Source of the DNA: Escherichia coli
Lineage (GTDB): Bacteria > Pseudomonadota > Gammaproteobacteria > Enterobacterales > Enterobacteriaceae
Reading direction: 5' to 3' (one strand)
Length of the DNA: 23,432 nt
Assembly: GCF_003334785.1 (NCBI RefSeq)
Contig: NZ_QOWV01000031.1
Positions 1 to 3,000 of the stretch are shown here, piece by piece. Position 1 is the stretch's first letter. The number at the start of each line of letters is the position of its first letter. Made by a program: the position numbers.

Positions 1-3000
1 TGATGGAAATGGAAGCCACGCAAGCACCTTAAAATCACCATCATACACTAAATCAGTAAGTTGGCAGCATTACCGAAGAGTTCGTGCAATTTCCGGCGGA
101 GAAAATTGAGGCCGTTTGTCATGCCATTGCCGCTCACAGTTTCAGCGCGCAAATCGCCCCCTTAACAACGGAAGCTAAAATCGTCCAGGATGCGGATCGG
201 CTGGAAGCCCTGGGGGCGATTGGCCTGGCGCGCGTATTTGCCGTTTCAGGGGCATTGGGCTTGGCGCTGTTTGATGGCGAAGATCCGTTCGCACAGCATC
301 GCCCGCTTGATGATAAACGCTACGCGCTGGATCATTTCCAGACAAAGTTACTGAAATTACCGCAAACCATGCAAACCGCAAGAGGCAAGCAGCTGGCACA
401 GCACAACGCGCAATTTTTAGTCGAGTTTATGGCGAAGCTCGGTGCCGAACTGGCGGGGGAGAATGAAGGTATCGATCACAAGGTGATAGATGCGTTTTCA
501 CCTGCTGGCTGAGCGCGTGGCCCTAAACGGCAGTAATTATGTTAACCTGTCGGCCATCTCAGATGGCCGGTTAAATCTATGCAGGAAAATATATCAGTAA
601 CCGATTCATACAGCACCGGGAATGCCGCACAGGCAATGCTGGAGAAACTGCTGCAAATTTATGATGTTAAAACGCTGGTGGCGCAGCTTAATGGTGTGGG
701 TGAGAATCACTGGAGCGCGGCAATTTTAAAACGTGCGCTGGCGAATGACTCGGCATGGCACCGTTTAAGTGAGAAAGAGTTCGCCCATCTGCAAACGTTG
801 TTACCCAAACCACCGGCACATCATCCGCATTATGCGTTTCGCTTTATCGATCTATTTGCCGGAATTGGCGGCATCCGTCGCGGTTTTGAATCGATTGGCG
901 GACAGTGCGTGTTTACCAGCGAATGGAACAAACATGCGGTACGCACTTATAAAGCCAATCATTATTGCGACCCGGCGACGCATCATTTTAATGAAGATAT
1001 CCGCGACATCACCCTCAGCCATAAAGAAGGCGTGAGTGATGAGGCGGCGGCGGAACATATTCGTCAACACATTCCTGAACACGATGTTTTACTGGCCGGT
1101 TTCCCTTGTCAGCCATTTTCGCTGGCTGGCGTATCGAAAAAGAACTCGCTCGGGCGGGCGCACGGTTTTGCCTGCGATACTCAGGGCACGCTGTTCTTTG
1201 ATGTGGTGCGCATTATCGACGCGCGTCGTCCGGCGATGTTTGTGCTCGAAAACGTCAAAAACCTGAAAAGCCACGACCAGGGTAAAACGTTCCGCATCAT
1301 CATGCAGACGCTGGACGAACTGGGCTATGACGTGGCTGATGCAGAAGATAATGGGCCGGACGATCCGAAAATCATCGATGGTAAACATTTTCTGCCGCAG
1401 CACCGTGAACGCATCGTGCTGGTGGGTTTTCGTCGCGATCTTAACCTGAAAGCCGATTTTACTCTGCGTGATATCAGCGGATGTTTCCCTGCGCAGCGAG
1501 TGACGCTGGCGCAGCTGCTGGACCCGATGGTCGAGGCGAAATATATCCTGACGCCGGTACTGTGGAAGTACCTCTATCGATATGCGAAAAAACATCAGGC
1601 GCGCGGTAACGGCTTCGGTTATGGAATGGTTTATCCGAACAATCCGCAAAGCGTCACCCGTACGCTGTCTGCGCGTTATTACAAAGATGGCGCGGAAATT
1701 TTAATCGATCGCGGATGGGATATGGCCACGGGTGAAAAAGACTTTGACGATCCGCTGAATCAGCAACATCGTCCACGTCGGTTAACGCCTCGGGAATGCG
1801 CGCGCTTAATGGGTTTTGAAGCGCCGGGAGAAGCGAAATTCCGCATTCCGGTTTCGGACACTCAGGCCTATCGCCAGTTCGGTAACTCGGTGGTCGTGCC
1901 GGTCTTTGCCGCGGTGGCAAAACTGCTTGAGCCAAAAATCAAACAGGCGGTGGCGTTGCGTCAGCAAGAGGCACAACATGGCCGATGTTCACGATAAGGC
2001 CACACGCAGCAAAAATATGCGCGCGATTGCCACGCGTGATACGGCGATTGAGAAGCGCCTCGCCAGTTTGTTAACCGGGCAGGGACTGGCGTTTCGCGTT
2101 CAGGACGCCAGTCTGCCCGGACGCCCGGATTTTGTCGTTGATGAATATCGCTGCGTGATATTTACCCATGGCTGCTTCTGGCATCATCATCACTGCTATC
2201 TGTTTAAAGTGCCTGCGACTCGAACCGAGTTCTGGCTGGAGAAGATAGGTAAAAATGTTGAGCGCGATCGCCGCGATATCAGTCGCTTGCAGGAACTCGG
2301 CTGGCGCGTATTGATTGTCTGGGAGTGCGCGTTACGTGGGCGCGAGAAGCTGACGGATGAAGCGCTTAGCGAGCGTCTGGAAGAGTGGATCTGCGGCGAA
2401 GGTGCCAGCGCGCAGATCGACACGCAGGGGATTCATTTACTCGCTTGATGCGTCCTGAATAACTGGCGCAACTACGGGTTTTGCCGGAAAGAGATATTTT
2501 CCCAACGTGACCAGCACCACCGCGAAGACAATTACGCCGAGCGCCAGCCATTCAATCTTCGAAAGCGTCTCTCCACCCAGTCCCGTACCCAGCAAGACCG
2601 CGACCACCGGGTTAACGTAGGCGTAGCTGGTGGCGAGAGCCGGACTGACGTTGCGGATTAAATACATATAAGCGTTGATGGCGATAATCGAACCAAACAG
2701 CGCCAGATAGCCGACCGCAAGGAAGCCTGAAAGGGAAGGGAGCGCCGTCAGTTTTTCACCCGCAATCATCGACGCGATCATTAACACCACGCCTGCCGCC
2801 AGCATCTCAATCGCACCCGCCATCATCCCTACAGGTAAGGTAATGCGCGAGCCATAAACCGAGCCAAACGCCCAGCTAATCGAGCCGATTAAAATCAGAA
2901 TCGCGCCCCACGGATTGCCGCTTAAATTTCCACCGCTATTGAGCATAATGATTCCGGCAAGCCCAATGGCGATACCCACCCATTCCAGTTTGCGCGTTTT

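Follow-up and report, generated by a model that had tools for sequence, protein, structure and literature searches.

The 23,432-nt stretch of Escherichia coli DNA considered here (NCBI RefSeq assembly GCF_003334785.1, contig NZ_QOWV01000031.1), which we call the window throughout, carries close to its first position the genes dcm and vsr, and the element under study is the junction at which the second gene begins inside the 3' end of the first. Vsr nicks beside the T of T:G mismatches that arise by deamination of Dcm-made 5-methylcytosine, and the two genes are an established "damage-maker plus repairer" pair, for which Hennecke 1991 and Sohail 1990 are reportedly the sources of functional background. 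The features of the junction are as follows.

579..1997, plus strand: dcm coding sequence, DNA-cytosine methyltransferase (CCWGG), 472 amino acids, start ATG at 579, stop TAA; from the list of open reading frames (ORFs)
1978..2448, plus strand: vsr coding sequence, very-short-patch T:G mismatch endonuclease, 156 amino acids; from its ORF frame
1978..1997, plus strand: dcm/vsr overlap, 20 nt, vsr in the +1 frame; from direct reading of the sequence
1978..1980, plus strand: vsr start codon ATG, 17 nt upstream of the dcm TAA
1995..1997, plus strand: dcm stop TAA, which straddles two vsr codons, with its T from the end of GAT (D6) and its two A's from the beginning of AAG (K7)
1966..1971, plus strand: Shine-Dalgarno (SD)-like AAGAGG for vsr, 6 nt before the ATG and within dcm codons
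1947..2007, plus strand: predicted mRNA hairpin around the vsr SD, AUG, and dcm stop; from folding of the window sequence only, not conserved

The dcm-vsr junction in Escherichia coli

From the offset between the two starts (1978-579 = 1399 = 3x466+1), the vsr frame is +1 to that of dcm. In vsr the overlap takes up codons 1-6 and two bases of codon 7; in dcm it comprises two bases of the H467 codon, all of G468-R472, and the stop. The same overlap is said to have been described in the literature as "seven codons", and the expected layout, with both genes on one strand, the vsr start in the 3' end of dcm, a +1 frame relation and about seven shared codons, is the one found in the window, as are a short stop-start spacing (17 nt) and a downstream SD (AAGAGG) within the upstream ORF. 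No other pair of annotated co-directional genes in the window overlaps by as much as these 20 nt.

The original prediction held that dcm and vsr overlap by 20 nt at 1978-1997 in different frames, that the vsr start lies within the 3' end of dcm, and that this known E. coli arrangement is intact here; it proposed alignment to E. coli dcm-vsr as a check. Direct reading and the ORF list bear out the overlap to the base: the ATG at 1978-1980 precedes the TAA at 1995-1997, and both ORFs are full length, with no frameshift or internal stop. The alignment gives the same 20-nt overlap in K-12 ER3413 and in E. coli FDAARGOS_1248, where RefSeq annotates it at 2975..2994 of record L001 and 2979..2998 of record L002, respectively, and a partial overlap of dcm with vsr is stated in PMC4444293, so that the prediction stands in each of these points.

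Dcm matches the NCBIfam model NF007772 "DNA cytosine methylase" at 950 bits (cut-off 710) and TIGR00675 at 349 bits, and it carries the motifs FAGIGG (93), PCQ (176), and ENV (224). Vsr matches TIGR00632 at 182.7 bits (cut-off 97.85) in a profile alignment that begins at residue 1, and PDB chain 1cw0_A, from the E. coli Vsr-DNA complex, matches its residues 2-156 with one substitution (S131 here, T in the structure). Vsr also has D51, H64, C66, F67, W68, H69, H71, C73, W86, D97, and C117, which we take from Vsr structure papers to be its catalytic and zinc residues. On these matches we regard both protein identities as beyond doubt and the overlap as no chance overlap of ORFs.

Over positions 500-2500 (2,001 bases), the window is 100% identical to FDAARGOS_1248 and 98.2% identical to K-12 ER3413, with 31 nt differences from the latter in 1,870 nt. 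The 2-kb dcm-vsr region is found in 5,368 of 5,426 complete E. coli genomes and a 101-nt junction probe in 5,320 of them (~98%), always at 95% identity or more. The K-12 dcm-vsr operon of Sohail et al. 1990 (J Bacteriol 172:4214) and Dar & Bhagwat 1993 (Mol Microbiol 9:823) consists of the same two genes; its 20-nt/+1 overlap, its SD and stop context, and its neighbours yedA and yedI all recur here, and the locus order yedJ-dcm-vsr-yedA-yedI is retained in the window, where yedJ is present as a 3' fragment only, owing to IS1. Against the K-12 proteins, Dcm of the window has G for E at residue 301 and C for R at residue 470, Vsr has S for T at residue 131, and W45 of Dcm stands where K-12 ER3413 has the dcm-6 stop at dcm codon 45. 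The change at Dcm residue 470 is a T/C difference at window position 1986 that is silent in vsr (D3). In a further E. coli strain, CM13 (L003, 2662-2733), most of dcm is gone and its last 72 nt are kept and overlap a vsr gene that is itself intact, probably the result of a deletion, engineered or spontaneous, that spared the vsr initiation region.

Because the family models, PDB 1cw0, the identical annotated genome, and the K-12 annotation all agree, we consider it very likely that the window holds the canonical E. coli dcm-vsr operon junction, already known and with nothing that departs from the norm. The strain has dcm and vsr genes in the textbook layout and, since both are intact, CCWGG methylation and very-short-patch repair should both function.

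The vsr start

For comparison we assembled loci from 80 enterobacterial species, and sequences with the 20-nt overlap gave a gap-free alignment of 49. In 80 of the 80 related loci a start codon aligns with that of the window or is displaced from it by one codon at most, and in the 20-nt-overlap sequences it is ATG in 46/49 and GTG in 3/49. The N-terminal 13 codons of Vsr are conserved as protein in the 80 loci, with nucleotide variation at third positions. Upstream, the core of the SD is strongly kept in the 49 aligned sequences (G1968 in 100%, A1969 in 96%, G1970 in 84%), and the Dcm-tail codons around it vary at all three positions. That the SD core is kept while neighbouring Dcm codons drift points to selection on the vsr ribosome-binding site, and separate, SD-led initiation of vsr appears well supported.

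One could suppose that no genuine overlap exists and that Vsr begins at Met14, since the corresponding in-frame ATG (2017-2019) lies beyond the dcm stop and is invariant in the 49 sequences. Against such a start, codons 2-13 are conserved as protein, their variation being confined to third positions; the TIGR00632 alignment begins at residue 1 and the crystallised full-length protein of 1cw0 at A2; the SD precedes the ATG at 1978; and Vsr without its N-terminal 14 residues has reduced endonuclease and repair activity (PMC2715241). The conservation pattern, the structural and family-model alignments, and the impairment of truncated Vsr led us to reject the Met14 start, which we hold to be highly improbable.

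Production of Vsr as a Dcm-Vsr fusion, through a +1 ribosomal frameshift in the overlap, has the +1 frame relation in its favour and nothing further. A conserved SD and start codon lie exactly at Vsr residue 1, vsr is found alone in 18 loci in which dcm is absent or a remnant and apart from dcm in 6 more, and Dar & Bhagwat are said to have reported independent translation. We rejected this fusion on the conservation pattern and the stand-alone vsr loci, and its probability seems to us close to nil.

The junction in other enterobacterial species

The 80 loci fall into the following classes of junction.

Exactly 20-nt/+1 overlap: 48/80 loci
17-nt overlap: 4/80 loci
14-nt overlap with a GTG start, in Superficieibacter: 2/80 loci
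35-nt overlap, in Siccibacter (L049, L051): 2/80 loci
Short gaps of 12 and 35 nt: 2/80 loci
About 0.9-1.0 kb between dcm and vsr, in Buttiauxella: 4/80 loci
yedJ-vsr-yedA-yedI without dcm: 17/80 loci
dcm remnant only, in Klebsiella indica: 1/80 loci

The 20-nt class takes in Escherichia, Salmonella, Citrobacter, Klebsiella, Enterobacter, Lelliottia, and others. Variable columns inside the overlap (window 1983, 1986, and 1989) are third positions of vsr codons and first positions of Dcm codons, and because the variation falls on the vsr third positions, the Vsr frame is, as far as this comparison goes, the one under constraint and the Dcm tail a drifting passenger. The length of the overlap follows Vsr codon choice within this evolutionarily protected frame. 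When D6 is encoded by GAC, as in the two Siccibacter loci, the stop is lost and dcm continues to a TAA in S11-K12, giving the 35-nt overlap. GAT at vsr codon 6 is equally common in loci that lack dcm (16/18), and overlap length for this reason looks like a by-product of conserved Vsr N-terminal codons, in which GAT-AAG makes TAA, and not like a selected quantity; selection on the position of the dcm stop, which we had considered, was dropped on the same count. The codon pair CAT-GAT at vsr H5-D6 (window 1990-1995), which would end dcm one codon sooner with an in-frame TGA, occurs in 0/57 dcm-overlapping sequences (the window and 56 loci) and in 9/18 dcm-less loci, a pattern that could be released constraint or merely phylogeny.

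About 30% of the sampled enterobacterial species (24/80 loci) have an apparently functional vsr at the same site with no overlapping dcm. Among these 24 loci (17 with dcm absent, 1 with a remnant, and 6 with dcm separated) vsr is intact in every one, and the catalytic and zinc residues listed above are all kept, bar a conservative F67Y in three dcm-less Kosakonia-type loci. The 17 species in which dcm is absent, which refers to absence at this locus, include Kosakonia, Phytobacter, Klebsiella oxytoca, K. spallanzanii, Pseudescherichia vulneris, and others (L029, L036-L038, L040, L042, L047, L048, L058, L059, L061, L063, L068, L070, L073, L076, and L084, with the vsr start at ~2501 in each). 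In 12 of the 17, those with a match to a yedJ probe, some 30-50 nt separate the end of the match from the vsr ATG, and vsr in the 17 is usually preceded by a strong SD. Klebsiella indica (L034, 2353-2505) keeps dcm residues 297-347, some 50 mid-gene codons, directly upstream of an intact vsr, an arrangement suggestive of a deletion scar. Two Buttiauxella loci were examined, and in both the space between the genes holds an ORF on the opposite strand for a 172-amino-acid protein with an N-terminal signal peptide (L054 1685-2203, minus strand; L056 1535-2053, minus strand), and because this gene sits between them, dcm and vsr there cannot be co-translated or form a simple shared operon. If the genomes without dcm at the locus truly have no Dcm, Vsr would have a role beyond the repair of deamination at Dcm sites.

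Reported dependence of Vsr synthesis on translation of dcm

dcm and vsr are described as a co-transcribed operon (PMC4924334, PMC12907096), and vsr activity is lost in the dcm-6 mutant, whose nonsense codon is at position 45 (PMC4444293, citing Dar & Bhagwat 1993); a stop at that codon is seen in K-12 ER3413, as PMC4444293 reports. A simple scan found no sigma-70-like promoter on the plus strand inside dcm, but it found none upstream of dcm either. The primary dcm-vsr papers reportedly concluded that the two genes are transcribed in common, that vsr has separate initiation, and that upstream translation is needed. From the literature together with our own reasoning, dcm and vsr would share a transcript, Vsr would arise from separate initiation and not as a fusion, and its efficient synthesis would need ribosomes translating dcm into the junction. 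The likeliest route, we infer, is that the junction is held open and occupied by ribosomes completing dcm, which would let a 30S subunit use the moderate SD. General work separates such unwinding-assisted de novo initiation from termination-reinitiation, and data from depletion of ribosome recycling factor (RRF) favour unwinding in E. coli (PMC6728339, PMC7538156). A stop-start distance of <25 nt has been described as optimal for coupling (PMC7538156), a range within which the dcm-vsr distance falls. The vsr SD has a duplex energy with the 16S 3' end of -5.8 kcal/mol; mean SD energies are -5.5 kcal/mol for overlapped vsr, -7.3 where dcm is absent, and -6.5 where it is separated (Mann-Whitney p = 0.005, uncorrected for phylogeny), and SD strength is the one class difference in the direction expected for coupling.

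A number of observations weigh against this account. Folding of 1920-2040 gives a minimum free energy of -42.2 kcal/mol (z = -2.42), with a hairpin at 1947-2007 that encloses the SD, the AUG, and the dcm stop. In the 49-species alignment the pairs of this hairpin are kept in 71.7% of cells, as against a shuffle mean of 71.7%, double-sided pair changes number 6 against a shuffled mean of 6.3, which lends no covariation support, and RNAalifold does not recover the hairpin. A conserved inhibitory hairpin at the vsr start was rejected for want of covariation and of an RNAalifold helix; in E. coli itself the predicted hairpin may form. The energy needed to open positions -15..+5 is alike between classes (8.8 kcal/mol for overlapped vsr, 8.3 and 7.7 kcal/mol for non-overlapped; p = 0.47 and 0.77). 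The unwinding model would call for a conserved structure hiding the vsr initiation region, and these folding predictions do not point to one. Moreover, that vsr is intact in the 24 loci without an overlapping dcm argues that the overlap is not required for vsr expression in general: on the comparative data it is not obligatory and would be dispensable for vsr expression in other genera. Translational coupling of Vsr to Dcm rests on the literature, and the dcm-6 phenotype, as we read it, fits coupling and polarity alike. Growth-phase regulation of Vsr, moreover, is reportedly not shared by Dcm. PMC2715241 places very-short-patch repair in stationary phase and holds that Vsr expression must be regulated (citing Macintyre 1999), and because Vsr is regulated by growth phase on that account, the Dcm:Vsr ratio may not be fixed.

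The dependence of Vsr on dcm could instead reflect transcriptional polarity or mRNA decay, in which the ~1.3 kb of RNA left untranslated after codon 45 is acted on by Rho or RNases and the overlap is irrelevant. The evidence for dependence is a distant nonsense mutation, which is the classical situation for Rho polarity, and instability has been noted for E. coli transcripts that contain long untranslated stretches (PMC6728339). The conserved SD that vsr has of its own, the occurrence of vsr without any overlap in what appear to be functional loci of other genera, and the failure to find a conserved inhibitory structure all speak for the same explanation. On the other side, Dar & Bhagwat 1993 are said to have concluded that vsr is translated efficiently only if the region upstream of it is translated, and the vsr SD is only moderate; in overlapped vsr genes it is also weaker on average than in those without the overlap. 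We consider polarity a possible explanation and an unlikely one. A related view goes further and takes the 20-nt overlap itself for an evolutionary by-product in place of a coupling device, with a self-sufficient vsr start and the Vsr-negative phenotype of dcm-6 due to polarity; to this we would give about the same limited credence.

A third possibility is termination-reinitiation, in which a ribosome or 30S subunit that ends at the dcm UAA moves 17 nt backward and begins again at the vsr AUG with the aid of the SD. The stop and the start lie within 20 nt with an SD upstream, most overlapping E. coli pairs that have been tested are strictly coupled, and removal of the SD usually cut reinitiation (PMC6728339). 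RRF depletion, however, leaves E. coli coupling unchanged, and it has been argued that reinitiation is not a major mechanism (PMC7538156); the pairs tested in PMC6728339 and PMC7538156 overlap by 1 or 4 nt, not by 20; and across species the overlap ranges from 14 to 35 nt, with 12- and 35-nt gaps in two loci, while vsr is intact throughout. Reinitiation at the dcm-vsr junction is in our judgement improbable, more so than polarity, and we retain as our account of the junction separate initiation of vsr, probably assisted by ribosomes that translate dcm.

Other features of the window

An IS1 end occupies positions 1-74 of the window (terminal inverted repeat at 36-74) and truncates yedJ to a 3' fragment (69-512). 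Relative to K-12, in addition to the cut in yedJ, the interval between hchA and yedJ lacks drpB, yedS, and the 5' part of hchA. The IS1::yedJ junction is common to 451 of 5,426 complete E. coli genomes, O26 strains included. Because about 500 nt upstream of dcm are retained, the dcm-vsr unit is probably unaffected by IS1. At its other end, vsr (plus strand) converges with yedA (minus strand), and their 3' ends overlap by 12 nt at 2437-2448, as in the K-12 annotation.

Other co-directional overlaps are found among the fli genes, where they measure 1, 4, or 8 nt (fliO/P, fliM/N, fliJ/K, fliH/I, fliG/H, and fliF/G, at positions 11034, 11812-11815, 14514-14517, 16349, 17028-17035, and 18016-18023). 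The gene for the small RNA DsrA (7589-7675, plus strand; Rfam RF00014, 102.5 bits) is the sole Rfam match in the window; a tRNA scan of the window found none, and neither the tRNA nor the Rfam scan returned anything related to the dcm-vsr junction. Just past fliE lie emrE, ybcL, and ybcM (20537-22396), presumably the DLP12 prophage genes found elsewhere on the K-12 chromosome. The window closes after them on an IS200/IS605 tnpA pseudogene (23350-23432), and the group suggests a prophage or island remnant adjoining the flagellar region.

Comparison with known systems

The dcm-vsr junction shares several properties with the short-overlap coupled gene pairs of E. coli, trpB-trpA and the ATGA/TGATG pairs (PMC6728339, PMC7538156): both genes run in one direction, the downstream gene has its SD within the upstream one, and stop and start are <25 nt apart. 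In those pairs an upstream nonsense mutation lowers the downstream product, as dcm-6 does for Vsr (PMC4444293). It differs from them in that dcm and vsr overlap by 20 nt instead of 1 or 4 nt, and a start 17 nt upstream of the stop means that reinitiation would need backward movement. The gene pairs covered in the coupling studies PMC6728339 and PMC7538156 were others than dcm-vsr. A second system, pvuIIC-pvuIIR, is likewise a co-directional overlap of several codons and likewise belongs to a DNA-modification-related system, according to PMC2997769; the two genes are reported there to be translationally independent, so that an overlap alone would be no proof of coupling.

The association of a 5-methylcytosine methyltransferase with a T:G endonuclease recurs elsewhere. 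In Neisseria, vsr homologues lie beside other cytosine-5 methyltransferase genes, and ScmA and VsrA of Caulobacter follow the same logic (PMC12907096). Unlike dcm and vsr, the Caulobacter genes are unlinked (PMC12907096), and vsr can also stand alone at its usual site in enterobacteria. The enterobacterial loci indicate that several genera can do without the overlap, a point to weigh before "coupling" is read in a strict sense.

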